Assembly (NCBI GenBank): GCA_964491455.1
Contig: CAZBFM010000001.1
Span: forward strand, 149,388 to 213,387
DNA length: 64,000 nt
Reading direction: 5' to 3'
DNA from: an uncultured Candidatus Saccharibacteria bacterium
GTDB lineage: Bacteria > Patescibacteriota > Minisyncoccia > 2-02-FULL-40-12 > GWA2-44-9
Part shown: positions 2,250 to 15,734 of the stretch, in pieces
Layout of the letters: each line of letters begins with the position of its first letter
How positions within the stretch are numbered: the first letter of the stretch is position 1
The notes under the pieces: model-generated
The model's database searches: none
What the model saw: the letters and a program-made list of their open reading frames with translations, nothing else
What the model was told of the DNA's origin: nothing
Position numbers and translations under genes: made by a program

Positions 2250-2744
2250 GTGTCTGAAATACAAGAATATAATAAAGGGATGATTTATCTTGCATCAGAT
2301 CACCGTGGTTTTGAAATGAAGAAAAAGGTGAAGGAGTGGCTTGATGAAATGAAGGCTGAGTATGCTGATTGTGGCCCTGTGACGTACAATGAGAATGATG
2401 ATTATCCAGATTTCATCGGGCTTGCTGCTGCAAAAATTGCCGAGGACCCGACAAATAATCGAGGTATTGTTTTTGGAGCAACGGGACAAGGAGAGGCAAT
2501 GGTTGCCAATCGACGACGAGGCGTGCGTGCCATTGTATTCTATGGCGGACCGATCGAAATTGTTCGACTAGGGAGACTTCATAATGCCGCCAATGTTCTT
2601 GCGTTGGGTGTCTCGCCAGGAAATACTATCGCTGAAGGCGTGGCGATCGATGTTGATATTGTTCGTGAAGCGGTGCAGGTGTTTCTGTCTACGGATTTCT
2701 TGCCGGAAGAGCGCCATGTTCGTCGGTTAGCGAAGCTCGATTAA
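2250..2744 (+). CDS. rpiB: Ribose-5-phosphate isomerase B (RpiB/LacAB family)
   Basis: IYLASDHRGFEMKKKV..., GIVFGATGQGEAMVANRRRGVRAIVFYGG; about 160 aa, typical of RpiB. Confidence 0.85.
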   Translation: MSEIQEYNKGMIYLASDHRGFEMKKKVKEWLDEMKAEYADCGPVTYNENDDYPDFIGLAAAKIAEDPTNNRGIVFGATGQGEAMVANRRRGVRAIVFYGGPIEIVRLGRLHNAANVLALGVSPGNTIAEGVAIDVDIVREAVQVFLSTDFLPEERHVRRLAKLD

Positions 2745-2752
2745 TCGCTGGT

Positions 2753-3394
2753 ATGGTGGAGATTATTCCTGCCATTATGACCGAGTCGGATGAAGAGTTT
2801 GTTCGCCACATTCATCTTTTAGAGCGAAGTGGAATCAAACGCGTACATCTTGATATTTCAGATGGTATTTTTGTTCGCATGAAGACCATCCTGGGTCACG
2901 AACAGCTCCGCCGCATCACCACGAGTCTCCAATTTGATGTGCATCTTATGGTGCAGAAGCCAGAAATACAGTGTTCTCGGTGGTGTGACATATCCAATAT
3001 ATCGCGATTTATTGTTCACGTGGAAACAACACAGCTGTTTCCGCAGTTACGAGAGCAAACACTCCAGCTGCGGAAAGAACTCGTGGCAGCTCTGAATCCC
3101 GAAACGTCATTGAGTCGCCTGGAGAGCGTGCTTCCTCATGTGGATATGGTGCAATTCATGACGATTCATCCTGGCGCGCAAGGTCGCACATTCCTGCCTC
3201 AATCGCTTGATAGAGTAACTGAATTTCATGCACAGCAACCGGAGATACACATTATGGTGGATGGCGGGATTAACCCTCATACTATTTCACAATGCGTGCA
3301 CGCTGGAGCGACGCACGTTGTCTCAGGAAGTTTTGTGATGCGATCTGCCGATCACTTGCGAGCGCTTCGAGAGCTCGAGGAAGCGGTGCGGTGA
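2753..3394 (+). CDS. rpe: Ribulose-phosphate 3-epimerase
   Basis: IIPAIM (IAPSIL-like), HLDISDGIFV, DVHLMV, HVETT, MTIHPGAQGRTF, MVDGGIN. Confidence 0.8.
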   Translation: MVEIIPAIMTESDEEFVRHIHLLERSGIKRVHLDISDGIFVRMKTILGHEQLRRITTSLQFDVHLMVQKPEIQCSRWCDISNISRFIVHVETTQLFPQLREQTLQLRKELVAALNPETSLSRLESVLPHVDMVQFMTIHPGAQGRTFLPQSLDRVTEFHAQQPEIHIMVDGGINPHTISQCVHAGATHVVSGSFVMRSADHLRALRELEEAVR

Positions 3395-3421
3395 TATGAT
3401 ATACTGAAGTCACTTGGAGGG

Positions 3422-4408
3422 ATGAATTACGATATCATTTCAATCGGGTCTGCAACGCACGACGTTTTTTTGAATGCTGAGCACTTTCAGATACTCGATA
3501 GTCATGAGTTTATTGCTGGGAAGGGAATTTGTATTCCTCTGGGCGGAAAAATACGAGTAGAGCGTATTTCGTTCTCGTCGGGTGGTGGAGGCACGAATGC
3601 CGCCGTCACTTTCGCGCGCCAAGGATTGCGAACTGCATGTCTCGGGAGTATCGGCAACGATGCATACGGGGCAATGATTTTGGACGAGCTGCGTCGAGAG
3701 GGCGTGGATGCCAAGTATGTTCAGCTACGTCACGAGGATACGACGGCATATTCTGTTATTTTGGTGACCAGAAGCGGAGAACGAACCGTGTTGGCGTACG
3801 TTGGTGAAGGGGCGCATTGGGACGTCGACGCTATCGCATGGGAAATGCTAGTCGCCCCATGGATGTATGTAAATTCTCTTGGTGGCAACCTGGAATTGTT
3901 GAAGCGAATTGTGCTGGAGGCAAAAAAGACGGGTCGACACCTTGCAACCAATCCCGGCGGGAAAGAGATTGAGATGGGGTTAGACGTGCTGGCACCACTT
4001 TGGAAGTCCTTTGATATCGTGGGGGTCAATCAGGAAGAGGCAGCGCAGCTCACGGGCTTACCCTATGATCGTGAAGAGGCAATCTTTCGAAAAATGGACG
4101 ACGCCGTTGGTGGTATTTTTATTATGACAAAAGGGAGTAAGGGTATTACGGTTTCTGACGGACATTATCTGTATTCAGCTGGCATTCCTAATCGTGATGT
4201 CGTCGAGCGCACCGGGGCGGGGGACGCGTTTCATTCAGCGTTTATCGCAGAATTTATGCGTTCTGGCTCGATTGAGAAAGCAATTCAAATGGGAACGGCA
4301 AATGCGACATCGGTTGTATTGTTCTACGGCGCTAAAAAGGGAATCTTGCGAAAGAATGATATCGGGCCGGCGCCTCTCGTGATGGTGCATAAAAAGAGGT
4401 TGGTATAA
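3422..4408 (+). CDS. PfkB-family carbohydrate kinase (ribokinase/phosphofructokinase-B-like)
   Basis: GGKIRVERISFSSGGGGTNAA (GG motif region) and GAGDAFHSAFIAEF (PfkB signature 2). Confidence 0.8.
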   Translation: MNYDIISIGSATHDVFLNAEHFQILDSHEFIAGKGICIPLGGKIRVERISFSSGGGGTNAAVTFARQGLRTACLGSIGNDAYGAMILDELRREGVDAKYVQLRHEDTTAYSVILVTRSGERTVLAYVGEGAHWDVDAIAWEMLVAPWMYVNSLGGNLELLKRIVLEAKKTGRHLATNPGGKEIEMGLDVLAPLWKSFDIVGVNQEEAAQLTGLPYDREEAIFRKMDDAVGGIFIMTKGSKGITVSDGHYLYSAGIPNRDVVERTGAGDAFHSAFIAEFMRSGSIEKAIQMGTANATSVVLFYGAKKGILRKNDIGPAPLVMVHKKRLV

Positions 4409-4419
4409 ATCAAATCGCC

Positions 4420-5685
4420 ATGGATTCTCCTCACCAAAAACTAGGAAGGCTACTCCGCACAAAGCCTGAAGTTCTCGAAGCGATGGAGCGTAAGATGAAC
4501 CGTATTTCGGGGCAACAGGGCGTTTTGTTCGATATTCAGCGGCAGATCGAGATCACTGTTGAGCGAACGCTTGCTGGGTTGGGTTTGTCATCGAACGATT
4601 CAGCGGAAGATGTGAAGCGTGTGCTTGCGGAGCGAACGACACACCTCGACGGGCACCTCTATCGAATGCTCGGAAAGCCTGACTTATCAAATCCGACCGT
4701 GGCGTGCCAGCAACTCTGTTCCGTTATTTCGAAGGTGTTCACGCCGCCCAAGGGGCTTTTTATAAAACACGAGGTAGCGATGCGAATGCTAGAAAAATAT
4801 CCACCTAAGAATTTATTGGATCACTTTGGCTACTCGAGTATCGCTGAGCTTTTTGAGAAGGAAGGCTTTGCTTCGGTGATGGCGTCGTTGAGATTTTCTC
4901 AAACGCAGGAGTGGATGCACCAATTCTTCGATGTTGCATATGGAGAGCTCACGGCAAGTGATTTTGAGGAGCGTGATGTTGAGCATCTAATCTTGGATGA
5001 AAAATGGGTTCATGTAGCCGAAAAATATATGGCGAAGAAGTATCACAACGTATCTCACCTCAAAGAATTTGGCGTGATATTCATTGTGCCAATTGATATC
5101 ACAAAACCGGGAGCAACCCTACAAGTGTTCACGCTCATTCTGCACTATCTTCATGAGGTGCCGTTTTACGCTAGTCTATTTCGAAGATATCGCGACGAAA
5201 AGGATTTTGCCACGACATTCAAAAGCTTGCTTCGGGGGGATGTACCATCGGGAAGCGCGCCCGACCATGGCAAGATGACGTGGCGCATTGTGCAGCGCTA
5301 TCTTACCAAGGACAATCCGGATGACTTTCGACTATTCGAGCCTCATGTGAATCCGGAGGCCGATCACTGGTGGCGAGCGGAGGAAGATATCGGAAGGCTC
5401 TCGCGAATCCTTGGGACGCATACGGGGGAGCTTGATCTAGGCTGGTGGAGTGGCTTGGATTTTGTTGGCGCGGAAATAATGAGTGTTGCATCGGGGAGGC
5501 CAGAGCTCATCAGTTTTGATCTTATCGACCTTCTTATGACTGTCGTGCATGGGTCTAACTCGCAATTTTTGTATCATCAACAGGAATCACTCTGGAACAA
5601 GATCTTTGTCGAATACATGGGGCGAGAGCGCATGCATTCACTGATCGAAGAGAATTTGGTTACTGGCTTCATAGATCTGTCATGA
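4420..5685 (+). CDS. Hypothetical 421-aa protein with no recognisable family, embedded in the sugar-phosphate cluster
   Basis: Long ORF with balanced composition. It is tightly packed between the PfkB kinase and fba, and its TGA overlaps the fba ATG (ATGA). Confidence 0.55.
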   Translation: MDSPHQKLGRLLRTKPEVLEAMERKMNRISGQQGVLFDIQRQIEITVERTLAGLGLSSNDSAEDVKRVLAERTTHLDGHLYRMLGKPDLSNPTVACQQLCSVISKVFTPPKGLFIKHEVAMRMLEKYPPKNLLDHFGYSSIAELFEKEGFASVMASLRFSQTQEWMHQFFDVAYGELTASDFEERDVEHLILDEKWVHVAEKYMAKKYHNVSHLKEFGVIFIVPIDITKPGATLQVFTLILHYLHEVPFYASLFRRYRDEKDFATTFKSLLRGDVPSGSAPDHGKMTWRIVQRYLTKDNPDDFRLFEPHVNPEADHWWRAEEDIGRLSRILGTHTGELDLGWWSGLDFVGAEIMSVASGRPELISFDLIDLLMTVVHGSNSQFLYHQQESLWNKIFVEYMGRERMHSLIEENLVTGFIDLS

Positions 5686-6545
5686 AAGCACTTCAGGAAT
5701 ATTTTTTGCAAGCGAGACACGAGGGCTGGGCAATCGGCCACTTCAACTTTGCGACAGCAGATGTGTTGCGTGCAATTGTGGAAGGAGCGCAGATTGGCGG
5801 AGCGCCATGCGTGATGGTTGGTACGAGCCCGGGCGAGGCCGAATTTCTTGGCCTTGATACTGCGGTAGCTCTCGTGCGGGCAATCCGAGAAGCTTCGGGT
5901 TTTCCCGTGTTTCTGAATGCTGATCATTTTAAGTCGTTTGATGCCTGCAGAGCCGCTATTGATGCGGGGTACGATACGGTGCTGTTTGACGGCGCCTCGC
6001 TGCCCTATGACGTGAATGTGATCGAGACGCGTCGTTTGTGGCAGTATGCACAGTCAAAGCGAGGGAGCTATATGATAGAAGGCGAGCTCGGCGTAATGCG
6101 AGGTTCAAGTGAAATGCAAAAGAGCATCGCTATTAGCTCGAGTGATTTCACAAAGCCTGAGCAAGCTGAAGATTTTGTGCGTCGCACGGGAGTAGAGCGT
6201 CTAGCTATAGTCTTTGGAAATATTCATGGAATTGTAACGGATCAAAAAGAATCACTTGATCTCGATCACCTCCGCACGGTGCTGAATGCGGTCCCTGATG
6301 TAGCGATCGTGCTGCATGGAGCATCAGGGATTCCTGATGATATGATTGTGGACGCTATACGGGGCGGAATAACTAACGTGCATTTCAACACAGAGCTTCG
6401 CGTGGCGTATCAAAGAGGTATTGCGGAGACGATTGAAGCGCAACCCGACCAAACAACTCCTTACAAGTTACTCGCTCGCGCCGATCAGCACGTGCGCGAT
6501 CTCGTCGCGCAGAAGACTCGTGTTTTTATGCAAAGTAATTCGTAG
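5682..6545 (+). CDS. fba: Class II fructose/tagatose-bisphosphate aldolase
   Basis: GWAIGHFNFATADVLRAIVEGA, LNADHFKS, VFGNIHG, LHGASGIPDD (class II aldolase motifs). Confidence 0.85.
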   Translation: MKALQEYFLQARHEGWAIGHFNFATADVLRAIVEGAQIGGAPCVMVGTSPGEAEFLGLDTAVALVRAIREASGFPVFLNADHFKSFDACRAAIDAGYDTVLFDGASLPYDVNVIETRRLWQYAQSKRGSYMIEGELGVMRGSSEMQKSIAISSSDFTKPEQAEDFVRRTGVERLAIVFGNIHGIVTDQKESLDLDHLRTVLNAVPDVAIVLHGASGIPDDMIVDAIRGGITNVHFNTELRVAYQRGIAETIEAQPDQTTPYKLLARADQHVRDLVAQKTRVFMQSNS

Positions 6546-6673: not shown

Positions 6674-8419
6674 ATGAGCACGTCGTTTCGTGGTTGGAGA
6701 TCAGTCATAACGGGAACGGTGATAGTTATAACGATTGTCATGCCGTTTTTGCGTGGGATATCTAGCTCCGAAGCAGTTGTTGTTGCGACTACACTGTTTA
6801 CGGATGGTTTCGAATCAAATAATTTAAACAACTGGACATCAGTTGGTAGTGGATGGGGCGTATCTAGTAGTAATCCGCACACTGGCTCTCGAAGAGCGGG
6901 CATAAGCAGTGATACCGGGCAAAATCCGAATGAATTACGCAAGAATGTTTCGACCGTCGGTTACGATGGCATATCATTTGACTATTGGTATTTAGCGAAT
7001 GACTTAGAATCACAAGATTATACATTTGCTCAATGGTCATCCAATAGCGGTAATACATGGAATACCTTATTTTCCATTAATAGCACCGTTGATGACAATA
7101 CGTGGCATCACAACACGCATTCTCTTCCTGTTGATGCGGAGAATCTAGCTGCGTTTCGAATCCGATTCCTGGCAAACTTAAATAGCTCGAATGATTTCGT
7201 CAGAATTGATGACGTCACCGTTTCTGGATACGCGATTGCAACGCCAACGCCGACACCGAGTAATGAGCCAACTCCGACGCCGACACCGAGTGATGAGCCC
7301 ACCCCCACTCCTTCACCGTCCGCAACACCTCTGCCGGGATCGCGTATGGCGTATGGAACGCTTATCATAGAGAAGGTGATACGAGGTGGCACGAAGACCT
7401 TTACGGATTTTGCATTTGTCTTTGGAGGCGGAGAGAATGATCATTTTAATTCCGGAGGCAGAAATGAATACGTGCGTGCAGTTGGAACATACCTTGTTAG
7501 CGAGCCACCAACAGAGGGTTTCACCGCAACGTTTGGTGGAGATTGCGACGAACAAGGCCAAATAAGTGTCCTGGAAGGTCAAGCGGTCACGTGTGTGATT
7601 ACAAACACATATGCAACTTGGCAGGAGGGTGATCCAATCGCAACGCCTGCGCCAGCGTCACCAGTCGCCCCAAGCACGCCTCAATCGCAGGAGGAAGCAT
7701 CTTCCGAGCCAGTAGGGACATTGGTGGTCCAAAAGATCATCGTATTGTCATCCGCAAGCTTTACTGAATTTGGATTCACGGTAGCAAGTCAAACGCAACA
7801 ATTTGAGGCGGATGGGACGAATGCCGTAAGCCTGACTCCCGGTCAGTATACCGTTCAGGAGGTCGTTACTCAGGGATTTGAGGTGACATATTCCGGTTCT
7901 TGTGATGTAGGCGGCGTGGTGACTGTCGAACTGGGGCAGACTTCTACGTGTGTGATTACTAATACGTTAGCAGTCGGCGGTTTTAATCCAGGCGAAATCC
8001 AATCAACGCCGACTCCCAGTCCGACACCATTGGCTACACCAGCTCCACGTGCAGCTACAAGAGAGCGCGTTGATGCGGGGCGAGTGAGTGATGAGTCATC
8101 AGGAGTAACTCTCACACCCACGCCAGAAGCATCAAGATCTGATGAGCCATCGAATGATCAGGCAGCAGCAATCGGTACATTCTTGGGTCTTGATGTGTGC
8201 TCGAGTGCCGGACAGACGATGTGGTGGATTACTATGTTTGGACTCGCTATATTCTTGATGTGGTTTGGACGAACTCGTGGGTCGTATCCATTACTCATTC
8301 TTGCGTATTTTGTCATTTGGGCACTCTGGGCTGTTCAGATATGTTCATTTGGATTTGGCTGGATGCCGGCAATCATGGGAGGTGCAAGCTGGCTTGTCGC
8401 GGTGCCTCGTAAGTCGTAA
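6674..8419 (+). CDS. Secreted/cell-surface protein with an N-terminal beta-rich domain, PT-rich linkers, two tandem Cna-B/prealbumin-like domains and a C-terminal two-helix membrane anchor
   Basis: N-terminal hydrophobic signal/TM. PTPTPSNEPTPTPTPSDEPTPTPSPS linkers, also seen as a DNA direct repeat at about 7240..7320. Two paralogous ~90-aa domains end in ...TCVITNT. The C-terminus MWWITMFGLAIFLMWF...AIMGGASWLVAV is hydrophobic. Confidence 0.75.
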   Translation: MSTSFRGWRSVITGTVIVITIVMPFLRGISSSEAVVVATTLFTDGFESNNLNNWTSVGSGWGVSSSNPHTGSRRAGISSDTGQNPNELRKNVSTVGYDGISFDYWYLANDLESQDYTFAQWSSNSGNTWNTLFSINSTVDDNTWHHNTHSLPVDAENLAAFRIRFLANLNSSNDFVRIDDVTVSGYAIATPTPTPSNEPTPTPTPSDEPTPTPSPSATPLPGSRMAYGTLIIEKVIRGGTKTFTDFAFVFGGGENDHFNSGGRNEYVRAVGTYLVSEPPTEGFTATFGGDCDEQGQISVLEGQAVTCVITNTYATWQEGDPIATPAPASPVAPSTPQSQEEASSEPVGTLVVQKIIVLSSASFTEFGFTVASQTQQFEADGTNAVSLTPGQYTVQEVVTQGFEVTYSGSCDVGGVVTVELGQTSTCVITNTLAVGGFNPGEIQSTPTPSPTPLATPAPRAATRERVDAGRVSDESSGVTLTPTPEASRSDEPSNDQAAAIGTFLGLDVCSSAGQTMWWITMFGLAIFLMWFGRTRGSYPLLILAYFVIWALWAVQICSFGFGWMPAIMGGASWLVAVPRKS

Positions 8420-8428
8420 TCCTAAAAA

Positions 8429-8458
8429 AGACAACCCCCATTACGGGGGTTGTCTTTT
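8429..8458 (+). terminator. Rho-independent terminator
   Basis: agacaaccccc-atta-gggggttgtct followed by TTT. Confidence 0.7.
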
Positions 8459-8551
8459 AGCTGGTTCTCTAGTATAGTATGCGGACTTACTACAGATACC
8501 TTATGGTCTTCACGGCACTTCGGAGCCGCGAAGAAAGTAAAGGATCTTGCA

Positions 8552-9253
8552 ATGATGGCAAAAGCAAAATCTCAGACAAAGTTAGAAATATCCGCGGAGC
8601 CACGTGAAGTTGTCGGGCGTCGCGTGAAGCACATGCGAGCAGAGGGTATCCTCCCAGCTGTACTGTATGGTAAGGGCCAGGAAGCTCTCAATCTTCAGGT
8701 GCCAGTTCGTGATTTTGAGAAGGCATTTCGTCAGGCAGGTGAATCGACACTCATTTACTTGAATGTCGGAAAAGATTCCTACCCCACGATTATCAAGGAT
8801 GTTGCGCGTAACTTCTTGACGGGCGCAATCCTGCACGCTGACTTCTATAAGGTGTCTCTCACGGAGAAGATCAGGGCAATGGTACCTGTTGTGTTTATCG
8901 GAGAGAGTCTTGCGGTTAAGGATCTCAAGGCTATCTTTGTGCGTATTGCAAATGAACTCGAGGTAGAGGCGCTTCCTCAAAACTTGCCACACGAGATTAC
9001 CGTTGATATCAGTTCATTGAAAGCGTTCGGAGACCAGATAACGATTGCTGACCTTGCGGTCGCCGATGTGGCCTTCACTGCAGAAGCAGGTGATGTTGTT
9101 GCAACGGTTCAGGAGCCGAAGTCTGAAGCCGAACTCGAAGCAGAATTGGCCGCTCCAACGACCGACGTAACTGCAGTCGAAGAGATTAAGAAAGAGAAGC
9201 CAGCGGATGAGGGTGAGTCAGCTGATGGCGAAGCCGCAGCACCTCAAGAGTAA
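8552..9253 (+). CDS. rplY: Ribosomal protein L25/general stress protein Ctc with an acidic C-terminal tail
   Basis: ILPAVLYGKGQEALNLQV... is L25-like. The ATG at 8552 is in frame within track ORF 8450..9253. Confidence 0.85.
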   Translation: MMAKAKSQTKLEISAEPREVVGRRVKHMRAEGILPAVLYGKGQEALNLQVPVRDFEKAFRQAGESTLIYLNVGKDSYPTIIKDVARNFLTGAILHADFYKVSLTEKIRAMVPVVFIGESLAVKDLKAIFVRIANELEVEALPQNLPHEITVDISSLKAFGDQITIADLAVADVAFTAEAGDVVATVQEPKSEAELEAELAAPTTDVTAVEEIKKEKPADEGESADGEAAAPQE

Positions 9254-14557: not shown

Positions 14558-14723
14558 GCGATCTCCTTTGGTTGTCGAAATACTACTGAAATGATGGCAC
14601 AAATAATAACAAATGTCAAAGTATTAGAATGAACTTTAATACAATGACAAGATTGTGCAACTTGATTCGTGTTGTAGGATATATACTCGGTCGATTCGTA
14701 TAACTAACAAAAAGGAAACCACC

Positions 14724-15734
14724 ATGGAAAAAAAGTCACTTCTCGCGCAGCATTTCACTCCAGAGATAGAAGCGCAGCTAGCGAGCGTTCGCACGGCGAA
14801 TGGATTCACAGTCGCTGATGTCGTCCGTTCAGGGCAGCAAAACCCTGATAGTAGCGTTGGAGTGTATGCCGGCGATGAAGAGTCGTATAAGGCCTTTGCC
14901 CCGCTCCTAGATCCGGTGATCGAGAGCTACCACGGTCATGGTCCTGAGGATACGCACCAGCGAGACCTTTCTGTCGAGAGTCTCGGGGATGTGCACGATT
15001 TGGACCCGAGTGGCGAGCGCATTGTCTCCACTCGTATTCGCGTTGGACGCAATCTCAAGGGCTTTGCTTTTGCCCCTGCGATTACCAAGGAGTCGCGCGA
15101 AGAAGTCGAGCGACAGGTGGTCGCTGCGCTTTCGAGTCTTACCGGTGAGCTTGCGGGTACCTATTACCCATTGAGTGGCATGAGCGAAGAGACCGCATCC
15201 AAGCTTATCGCTGATCACTTCCTCTTTAAGGAGGGCGACCGTTTTCTCGAGAGCGCCGGAGCGAATCGCGATTGGCCGAGTGCCCGTGGTATTTTTCATT
15301 CTGCAAACAAGCAGTTCTTGGTGTGGGTGAATGAAGAAGACCAGCTTCGCATCATCTCCATGCAACCTGGTGGAAATGTGCGCGAGGTGTTCGCGCGGTT
15401 GTCGACTGCAATAGGGGAGCTCGAAAAGAAGCTCACCTTCGCCTACGATGATCGTCATGGATACCTCTCGAGTTGTCCCACGAATCTTGGAACCGCGATG
15501 CGCGCGAGTGTGCACGTGAAACTACCAAAGCTTGGCGCAACTGACGCGCTCAAGGAAGAATGTGCAAAGCTCGGCTTGTCAGTGCGTGGTATCCACGGGG
15601 AGCACTCCGAGAGCGAGGGTGGCGTGTATGACATTTCCAACAAGCGTCGTCTTGGTGTCAGTGAGGCTGAAGCGGTGAAGCTTATGGCTCATGGGGTTCA
15701 GCACCTACTGGAACTCGAGAGTACGCTCGCGTAA
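14724..15734 (+). CDS. ATP:guanido phosphotransferase of the phosphagen/arginine-kinase type, with N-terminal substrate-specificity domain
   Basis: The active-site signature CPTNLGT is present. The N-domain motif VGVYAGDEESYKAFAPLLDPVIESYHG resembles arginine kinases. Flanked by RIRVGRNLKGFAFAP and GGVYDISNKRRLG. The ATG has AAAGGAAACC 7 nt upstream. Confidence 0.85.
   Translation: MEKKSLLAQHFTPEIEAQLASVRTANGFTVADVVRSGQQNPDSSVGVYAGDEESYKAFAPLLDPVIESYHGHGPEDTHQRDLSVESLGDVHDLDPSGERIVSTRIRVGRNLKGFAFAPAITKESREEVERQVVAALSSLTGELAGTYYPLSGMSEETASKLIADHFLFKEGDRFLESAGANRDWPSARGIFHSANKQFLVWVNEEDQLRIISMQPGGNVREVFARLSTAIGELEKKLTFAYDDRHGYLSSCPTNLGTAMRASVHVKLPKLGATDALKEECAKLGLSVRGIHGEHSESEGGVYDISNKRRLGVSEAEAVKLMAHGVQHLLELESTLA

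Follow-up and report, generated by a model that had tools for sequence, protein, structure and literature searches.

Gene content of the cluster

The stretch of DNA analyzed here, referred to as the window, comprises 64,000 nucleotides from an uncultured Candidatus Saccharibacteria bacterium (GenBank assembly GCA_964491455.1, contig CAZBFM010000001.1, positions 149,388 to 213,387), and its positions 2250 to 6545 hold a cluster of sugar-phosphate genes that encloses the gene of an unannotated protein of 421 amino acids (aa), designated UNK. An earlier note on this DNA had described five genes, i.e., rpiB, rpe, a PfkB-family kinase gene, the UNK gene, and a class II fba, and a six-frame list of open reading frames (ORFs) together with the matches in Pfam and NCBIfam confirmed five codirectional ORFs on the plus strand at exactly these coordinates. 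The first two encode a protein of the ribose-5-phosphate isomerase B family (rpiB, 2250..2744, +; Pfam LacAB_rpiB, 2.5e-30; NCBIfam TIGR00689, 113.9 bits, above the cutoff of that model) and one of the ribulose-phosphate 3-epimerase family (rpe, 2753..3394, +; Pfam Ribul_P_3_epim, 1.2e-35; NCBIfam rpe subfamily, 144 bits). They are followed by a PfkB/ribokinase-family sugar(-phosphate) kinase of the type designated A/W (3422..4408, +; PF00294, 6.1e-39), by UNK (4420..5685, +), a member of an unannotated Patescibacteria-specific family without any family match, and by a class II ketose-bisphosphate aldolase of the fructose-1,6-bisphosphate/sedoheptulose-1,7-bisphosphate (FBP/SBP) type (fba, 5682..6545, +; Pfam F_bP_aldolase PF01116, 5e-63). 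The aldolase match covers profile positions 3 to 276 of 277, i.e., a full-length class II TIM barrel. None of the four identified neighbors reaches an NCBIfam equivalog cutoff; the aldolase, for instance, scores 209.3 versus 343.05 with the class II FBP aldolase equivalog and 189.9 versus 215.6 with the cbbA subfamily model.

The "overlaps of 4 nt or less" of the earlier note are loosely right as a description of the dense packing, but only UNK and fba actually overlap, by 4 nt, and the three preceding intergenic gaps measure 8, 27, and 11 nt. The listed GTG start of rpiB at position 2250 probably lies too far upstream, since the Pfam and NCBIfam matches begin only at residue 12, and the true start is probably the ATG at 2280 (MIYLASDHRG). 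No internal promoter or terminator signal beyond the expectation from shuffled sequences was detected in the cluster, and control by a riboswitch or attenuator was rejected, as no Rfam element matched. Genes for transketolase (tkt), transaldolase (tal), pgi, and fbp are absent from 20 larger ORFs in the rest of the window, and tblastn retrieved no tkt, tal, LOG, IMPase, or glycerate kinase match in it. FsaA gave no match in the window either, a weak negative because the query sequence was approximate.

A protein family restricted to Patescibacteria

The earlier note had recognized no motif in the 421-aa protein, which is borne out by searches of Pfam, NCBIfam, PHROGs, PADLOC, and PDB sequences. 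UNK matched no family in Pfam or NCBIfam and no PDB sequence, be it as a single sequence or as a profile of 46 or 90 sequences; PHROGs returned nothing beyond one match at E = 0.44, and three family members had no match in PADLOC. When 90 family members were individually compared with Pfam at E <= 5, no family was matched by more than one of them. Searches for particular enzymes were likewise negative, i.e., for FBPase, GlpX, FBPase_2, IMPase-type, or FBP aldolase/phosphatase models with UNK (Pfam and NCBIfam, E <= 0.1), for the transketolase domains PF00456, PF02779, and PF02780 with UNK and the 90 members (Pfam and NCBIfam), and for TAL_FSA (PF00923) as well as a LOG domain or its PGGxGTxxE motif in the UNK protein itself. 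The literature searched contains neither a described function nor transposon sequencing (Tn-seq) data for the family.

The family is large: 2,443 clusters were counted at the 90% identity level, and an exhaustive HMMER scan gave 675 at the 50% level; 495 GTDB species genomes contain its two best motifs, HN[VI]SHLKE and LHYLHEVP. Judged by sequence, it is restricted to Patescibacteria, the Candidate Phyla Radiation (CPR), and belongs to no described family. The representatives split into two clusters, one that includes the window protein (the main clade) and a divergent one with 21 to 29% identity to it. Main-clade proteins retain the complete signature, which consists of some 20 polar residues, and divergent ones mainly D181/E183/R185, E216, E246, H309, E313, W343, and D370. 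Two unusually composed proteins, P0246 (1,799 aa) and P0260 (a TsaD fragment plus the UNK C terminus), were rejected as informative fusions, as both look like run-through or chimeric gene calls.

Synteny in the main clade

Conservation of the gene order was assessed in the 80 closest genome loci, whose proteins share 44 to 98% identity with UNK, by look-ups that reached 10-kb flanks per locus. The kinase gene lies directly 5' of UNK in 72 of 73 loci and fba directly 3' of it in 65 of 66, with a median gap of 15 nt, while rpe occurs in 55/55 loci and rpiB in 53/55. This arrangement is far beyond chance. The only recurrent insert occupies the slot between rpiB and rpe and is either a 2-hydroxy-acid dehydrogenase (2-Hacid_dh; 33 loci, e.g., L002, 5339-6307) or a GlcD-like FAD oxidase (20 loci, e.g., L018, 4625-6262); the window has neither. 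The dehydrogenase scores 349 bits with a glyoxylate/hydroxypyruvate reductase model and 119 bits with that of D-lactate dehydrogenase, and a plain D-lactate dehydrogenase was rejected on account of this far lower score, in a family in which specificity is not decidable from sequence. Both inserts look like unrelated enzymes for one and the same 2-hydroxy-acid redox step. No tkt or tal gene was found within 8 kb of UNK in the 80 loci.

In a third small clade, a single contig (L087, 164-5476) carries overlapping genes for an IMPase/HisN-like phosphatase, UNK, a glyoxylate-reductase-like dehydrogenase, a ClpA/B-like AAA fragment, and a glycerate 2-kinase.

The main-clade order rpiB-rpe-PfkB-UNK-fba is colinear with a transketolase-independent route of the "pentose bisphosphate" type, a bacterial analogue of the noncarboxylating pathway of haloarchaea, of which UNK could supply one step. 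Ribose-5-phosphate (R5P) would be converted via ribulose-5-phosphate and xylulose-5-phosphate to xylulose-1,5-bisphosphate, which after the action of an isomerase or a 5-phosphatase would yield dihydroxyacetone phosphate (DHAP) and a C2 unit, and the neighboring glyoxylate-reductase-like or GlcD-like enzyme would handle the C2 product. The missing tkt and tal genes in the main-clade loci and the window, the redox enzymes in the rpiB-rpe slot, and the grouping of UNK in L087 with a phosphatase, glycerate 2-kinase, and a reductase like that of the slot are in line with such a route, for which a haloarchaeal precedent exists (PMC9700705). In that pathway, a ribokinase/PfkB-family kinase cooperates with another enzyme plus an aldolase, and in the PsuK-PsuG pair for pseudouridine with a nucleotide glycosidase, so that ribose from nucleosides enters central metabolism. 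The enzyme families are different ones, i.e., an e2b2 isomerase, a HAD phosphatase, and a FucA aldolase in haloarchaea and PsuG as the partner of PsuK, and the likeness would be one of logic only. Moreover, the route wastes ATP, the redox enzymes could be mere D-lactate dehydrogenases, and the divergent-branch orthologues of UNK sit together with transketolase, where the ordinary pathway suffices. We therefore regard a pentose bisphosphate route as improbable.

The divergent branch and its link to LOG-type nucleosidases

At least 59 loci of the divergent cluster, many of them labeled Saccharibacteria or Saccharimonadaceae, were gathered by look-ups and one metagenome scan with three sequences. 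As far as the contigs reach, all 59 share the order gapdh-rpiB-rpe-tktN-tktC-fba-pfkB-UNK-LOG/SLOG, followed by uvrB, and the operon of every locus that extends far enough contains a canonical split transketolase. In 41 of 56 loci (UNK::LOG ORFs within L091-L149 and L084; e.g., L114, 8992-10935), UNK is fused in frame to a LOG domain, which in relatives such as P0184 matches PF03641 at 1.4e-32 and carries PGGFGTLDE as its version of the PGGxGTxxE motif. The other 15 possess a separate downstream gene, either SLOG at a distance of -1 to 31 nt (13 loci) or LOG at 88 to 91 nt (2 loci). Fused or tightly adjacent in 56/56 loci, the LOG-type nucleotide phosphoribohydrolase is the strongest functional link of UNK, and the fusions, as Rosetta stone evidence, argue for a shared pathway or complex. 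A search with the LOG domain for other fusion partners returned stand-alone LOG proteins only, among the matches listed, although the gene neighborhoods of these proved informative.

LOG-family nucleosidases comprise, e.g., PpnN of Escherichia coli and the plant "Lonely Guy" proteins, with which the partner domain of UNK shares the LOG fold and the PGGxGTxxE motif. PpnN also bears extra flanking domains that control it, comparable to UNK on LOG, but the sequence of UNK is unrelated to them (no Pfam match) and UNK of the window clade exists without LOG. The LOG ("Lonely Guy") gene of Saccharibacteria has been interpreted as a plant cytokinin-activating enzyme (PMC6031116). Its fixed last place in a ribose-phosphate operon and its fusion to UNK point to nucleotide catabolism rather than plant-hormone signaling.

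Twelve divergent loci contain, as an insert that separates fba from pfkB and runs in the opposite direction, a canonical transaldolase gene (PF00923, 4.7e-78; L104, 6900-7979, -; also L109, L113, L116, L118, L126, L127, L128, L135, L137, L142, and L145), and UNK is full length in all of them. The insert in these Saccharibacteria-type operons looks like a secondary acquisition, and its sparse distribution agrees with the report of tal only in the rhizosphere genome among the Saccharibacteria genomes of one study (PMC6031116).

The earlier note had placed UNK at a transketolase- or transaldolase-type step, an idea that could draw on the lack of a transaldolase gene in most UNK-bearing operons and on the reported absence of transaldolase from most Saccharibacteria (PMC6031116) and from a Microgenomates genome (PMC7143001). 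The divergent branch largely refutes it. UNK is no replacement for transketolase, because the canonical split enzyme shares its operon throughout this branch, and no substitute for transaldolase, because 12 loci hold canonical tal plus full-length UNK. Furthermore, PfkB and FBP aldolase (FBA) would already provide a known transaldolase bypass (PMC7029132), the predicted fold of UNK is unrelated to thiamine pyrophosphate (TPP) enzymes or TIM-barrel aldolases, and the LOG fusion would be left unexplained. A role of this kind is thus very unlikely.

A RelA/SpoT gene (HD_4, RelA_SpoT, and TGS domains) is the divergently oriented neighbor of the gapdh...LOG operon in three lineages (L084, 1-1459; L114, 1402-2940, -; L150, 1-1370, -), which hints at a possible connection of the operon with the stringent response. 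In L114, a YfiH/FAMIN-type gene (PF02578) and an IMPase-family gene adjoin the RelA/SpoT gene.

Domain architecture and predicted fold of UNK

The slot between PfkB and LOG is occupied in L150/L151 by a 494-aa protein (7514-8998, +) that lacks the central domain of UNK. Its residues 1-75 correspond to the UNK N terminus (profile positions 3-76), residues 83-149 to the UNK C terminus (profile positions 338-404), and residues 165-488 to a PfkB kinase of type B. In P0179, an N-plus-C mini-module is duplicated ahead of a full UNK copy. These mini-modules define UNK as a discontinuous helical domain with an inserted central domain of about 260 residues. The N-segment of helical domain 1 (residues ~1-79; 4420..4656, +) is joined directly to the C-segment in the L150 fusion and P0179, the inserted domain 2 is predicted to be of the alpha+beta type with a remotely zincin-like topology (residues ~80-340; 4657..5439, +), and the C-segment of domain 1 completes the protein (residues ~341-421; 5440..5685, +; profile positions 334-404 are matched in the mini-modules of L150 and P0179). 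The type B kinase of L150, which could make nucleoside monophosphate (NMP), would therefore take the position that domain 2 otherwise has on this helical scaffold. L150/L151 is also the only case in which UNK was lost while its flanking genes stayed together, an outcome that the earlier note had named as speaking against its idea, and even there the helical module is kept.

The AlphaFold2 (AF2) model of the whole protein has a predicted local distance difference test value (pLDDT) of 89.6 and a predicted template modeling score (pTM) of 0.89, and domain 2 modeled alone also folds confidently (pLDDT 85.2, pTM 0.84). A Foldseek comparison of the UNK model with the PDB yielded nothing significant. 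The fold matches of domain 2 are weak and restricted to zincin-fold proteins, including the nonprotease YbeY RNase and ArdC; the structure prediction proposed by the earlier note thus gave no confident match to a nonmetabolic family.

Conserved residues are found in both domains. Domain 2 carries D181-F-E-x-R185, H209/H213, K215-E216, H242-x3-E246, and P308-H309...E313, and the C-segment carries W343, D370 (invariant in 90 representatives), and Y385-H386..E389..W392-N393. The helix 232-256 presents H242-Y243-L-H245-E246 and no HExxH. Among 99 representatives, position 243 is Tyr in 80 and position 245 is N, H, Y, or F, while H242 is present in 88 and E246 in 94; H309 (87/99) and E313 (91/99) are located at the start of the helix 312-331, 67 residues downstream.

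Zincin-fold (gluzincin-like) metallohydrolases, with which domain 2 was compared, include YbeY RNase, ArdC, and the pseudo-zincin N-domain of anthrax lethal factor (LF), and the predicted fold of UNK would have in common with zincins a mixed beta-sheet, a long "active-site" helix with H242 and an acidic residue four positions on, and a later helix with an acidic residue. This resemblance, the only structural one, could suggest an ordinary zincin-type peptidase that resides in the operon by chance. However, HExxH is absent, the position of the "catalytic Glu" is Tyr and the second His is variable, so that UNK is not a zincin peptidase in the defining sense. In addition, no peptidase model in Pfam or NCBIfam matched, and synteny and fusions bind UNK to sugar-phosphate and nucleotide enzymes across deep divergence, which makes a chance peptidase extremely unlikely. 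At most, UNK would derive remotely from zincins and have a putative metal site that differs from theirs and is rich in carboxylates. The candidate residues for this site are E216, E246, H309, E313, and D370, joined in most members by H209, H213, and H386.

Alternatively, UNK could be a noncatalytic regulator or scaffold, i.e., a pseudo-zincin that would respond to a metabolite or alarmone and thereby control the irreversible LOG and PfkB steps in a manner reminiscent of the flanking domains of PpnN. PpnN is regulated by (p)ppGpp and has been described as a stringent-response nucleosidase. The fusion of UNK to LOG and of its helical module to a PfkB kinase, the occurrence of this module on its own, the absence of HExxH, the degeneration of supposedly catalytic residues in several subgroups, and the RelA/SpoT neighbor in three lineages would all suit a regulator, and organisms unable to make nucleotides (PMC6031116) must control LOG tightly. 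On the other hand, about 20 polar residues, including 6 to 8 His, are strictly conserved in the main clade and the LOG-fused P0187 group (27 to 100% identity), and such a conservation of His and other polar residues is typical of a metal-dependent active site. UNK furthermore shows no signature of a ligand-binding family, and 420 aa are large for a sensor. A purely regulatory role is accordingly doubtful, although almost as probable as the function proposed below.

The PfkB kinases and the sugar bisphosphates

The kinase of the window displays the NxxE motif as VNQEE and the anion-hole/catalytic Asp motif as TGAGDAF. Its best NCBIfam match is ribokinase, with 114.6 bits versus a cutoff of 299.65, and its best PDB matches are ribokinases at only 5e-17. 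Two PfkB types were distinguished by tblastn, of which type A of the divergent branch is closer to the window kinase than type B. Type A is located directly 5' of UNK in nearly all loci, and type B replaces it in L084 and L085/86/88 and accompanies it in L091/L124 (order A-B-UNK::LOG). We infer that the kinase of the window is a 1-kinase of fructose-6-phosphate (F6P) and sedoheptulose-7-phosphate (S7P); the PfkB protein, usually annotated as "ribokinase," would be the obvious candidate for the missing F6P/S7P kinase.

An ATP-dependent PfkB would render the SBP/FBP route irreversible, and a bisphosphatase would therefore make the transaldolase-free pentose-phosphate pathway bidirectional. UNK could be such an enzyme, a nonhomologous fructose-1,6-/sedoheptulose-1,7-bisphosphatase. 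It lies between kinase and aldolase with a 4-nt overlap to fba, in a position kept in the 65 of 66 main-clade loci mentioned above, and the operon comprises rpi, rpe, (tkt), kinase, aldolase, and gapdh, yet no bisphosphatase. Fructose-1,6-bisphosphatase (FBPase) has been reported missing from a closed CPR genome (PMC7143001), and the clostridial SBP route is reversible only through a phosphofructokinase (PFK) that uses pyrophosphate (PPi) (PMC7029132). The predicted fold of UNK is moreover of a hydrolase type, with many carboxylates and His among the conserved residues, and L089 combines a UNK whose residues have decayed with a His_Phos_1 phosphatase as an insert. The FBPase/SBPase genes of the Calvin cycle (cbbF) and the ribulose monophosphate (RuMP) pathway (glpX) keep the same company of rpe, tkt, kinase, class II aldolase, and gapdh and reside next to the aldolase. 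In contrast to FBPase classes I to V, however, UNK exhibits no similarity in sequence to any of them and no known phosphatase motif, and fusions to LOG or a kinase are not seen for FBPases. A bisphosphatase would explain neither the LOG fusion nor that of the helical module to the kinase. Seven divergent-branch loci already have an IMPase/FBPase-family gene in the vicinity of the operon, and in L087 such a gene directly adjoins UNK. Saccharibacteria lack PRPP (phosphoribosyl pyrophosphate) synthesis and therefore have little need to make R5P, and the central domain is lost in L150/L151. Altogether, we consider a bisphosphatase rather unlikely, though not far behind the function proposed below.

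Proposed function

Whatever is said here on the functions of UNK and of the PfkB kinases is deduced from their context. With this proviso, we tentatively propose, at clearly less than an even chance, that UNK is a Patescibacteria-specific accessory protein, namely, a metal-dependent hydrolase at the entry from nucleotides to R5P that works together with LOG and PfkB. The earlier note's wider formula, a novel enzyme or a regulator of a kinase/aldolase shunt, was the right class of idea, the linkage to PfkB being the most constant one and the helical module being fused to PfkB.

The operon would convert the ribose of scavenged nucleotides to triose phosphates. LOG would split NMP into base and R5P, which RpiB and Rpe would pass on to transketolase for the formation of S7P and F6P; PfkB would phosphorylate these to SBP and FBP, and the class II aldolase would cleave the bisphosphates to DHAP plus erythrose-4-phosphate or glyceraldehyde-3-phosphate, to be followed by glyceraldehyde-3-phosphate dehydrogenase (GAPDH). 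Via the SBP route, PfkB and the aldolase would thus stand in for the absent PFK and for the transaldolase that most lineages lack. The helical domain of UNK might serve as a docking module that holds a catalytic unit beside LOG, and domain 2 as a metal-dependent hydrolase that makes the LOG substrate, i.e., 5'-NMP from nucleoside di- or triphosphates, 3'- or cyclic nucleotides, or short oligonucleotides. As another option, domain 2 may release R5P or ribose in parallel with LOG. The assignment to the entry step is supported by the other operon members having assigned steps and from the main-clade operon being otherwise without an entry enzyme.

The metabolic background is consistent with this scheme. 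Saccharibacteria depend on the scavenging of nucleic acids, have neither PFK nor PRPP synthesis, and are mostly without transaldolase (PMC6031116), and a closed Microgenomates genome is devoid of PFK, FBPase, and transaldolase (PMC7143001). In clostridia, PFK and FBA replace transaldolase, and the SBP pathway is reversible only because the PFK uses PPi (PMC7029132).

Several observations weigh against a hydrolase at the nucleotide entry. The main-clade UNK gene has the kinase on one side and fba, to which its translation is coupled, on the other, and no LOG gene occurs within 8 kb of UNK in 79 of 80 main-clade loci, which fits a role in sugar-bisphosphate metabolism better. H209, H213, H242, or H386 has been lost in several SLOG-adjacent subgroups, a pattern that better suits a protein with a binding or regulatory role, and one lineage (L150/L151) dispensed with the central domain while keeping the operon. 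The substrates of PfkB types A and B are, finally, not assignable by sequence; matches to ribokinase, IolC, and ribose-1-phosphate (R1P) kinase all remain far below cutoff.

Taken more broadly, UNK might be a new enzyme family with a zincin-derived carboxylate/His metal center set in a docking domain that assembles with PfkB and LOG into a "ribose-harvesting" complex, a picture to which we give about the same chance as to the proposal above. The step catalyzed would be one of Patescibacteria-specific central metabolism to which no enzyme has so far been assigned and could be, for example, that of a new type of nucleotide or sugar-bisphosphate phosphohydrolase.

Other features of the window

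Directly downstream of the cluster, a gene for a 581-aa Thr/Pro-rich protein (6674-8419, +) is, in comparison with the relative L002, inserted between fba and the gene for ribosomal protein L25. The protein contains repeated prealbumin-like segments and a hydrophobic C-terminal region, has no significant Pfam match, and is probably a surface protein. Upstream of rpiB, an NfeD-like membrane protein (1201-1833, -; weak PF01957 match, 9.1e-04) carries the His/Asp repeat DHDTDHDTDHDADHDNDHD, a possible metal-binding tract. A 359-aa ATP:guanido phosphotransferase (14655-15734, +) matches both the N-terminal PF02807 (3.1e-25) and the catalytic PF00217 (1.7e-76) domain. Its domain composition marks it as a full phosphagen kinase of the arginine/creatine type and not of the single-domain McsB type, which is unusual in bacteria and is predicted here for a Patescibacterium with a tiny genome.

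Comparison with the clostridial pathway and significance

The operon resembles the transaldolase-free SBP pathway of clostridia in the combination of rpi, rpe, tkt, a phosphosugar-type kinase, and a class II aldolase and in the usual lack of transaldolase and a canonical PFK. Unlike there, the kinase belongs to the PfkB/ribokinase family and is presumably ATP-dependent rather than a PPi-PFK, and the clostridial pathway has no counterpart of UNK or, in one branch, of LOG. The operon hence represents the transaldolase-free SBP pathway in a variant form that is linked to a LOG-type nucleosidase, and both are already known in kind.

One deeply conserved operon thereby unites a PfkB kinase, usually dismissed as a "ribokinase," with a large unannotated protein family, and it places UNK and the overlooked kinase at a hole that has existed for years in the metabolic maps of CPR bacteria. 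If UNK were only a lineage-specific regulator, it would be of specialist interest only. Due to the fusions, its function is directly testable with a handful of recombinant proteins. If the broader picture is true, a new UNK enzyme and a PfkB/LOG complex would close long-noted gaps in the carbon metabolism of the CPR, i.e., the lack of PFK, FBPase, and transaldolase. The fusions of UNK to LOG and PfkB provide concrete hypotheses on how episymbionts may gain carbon and energy from scavenged nucleotides.

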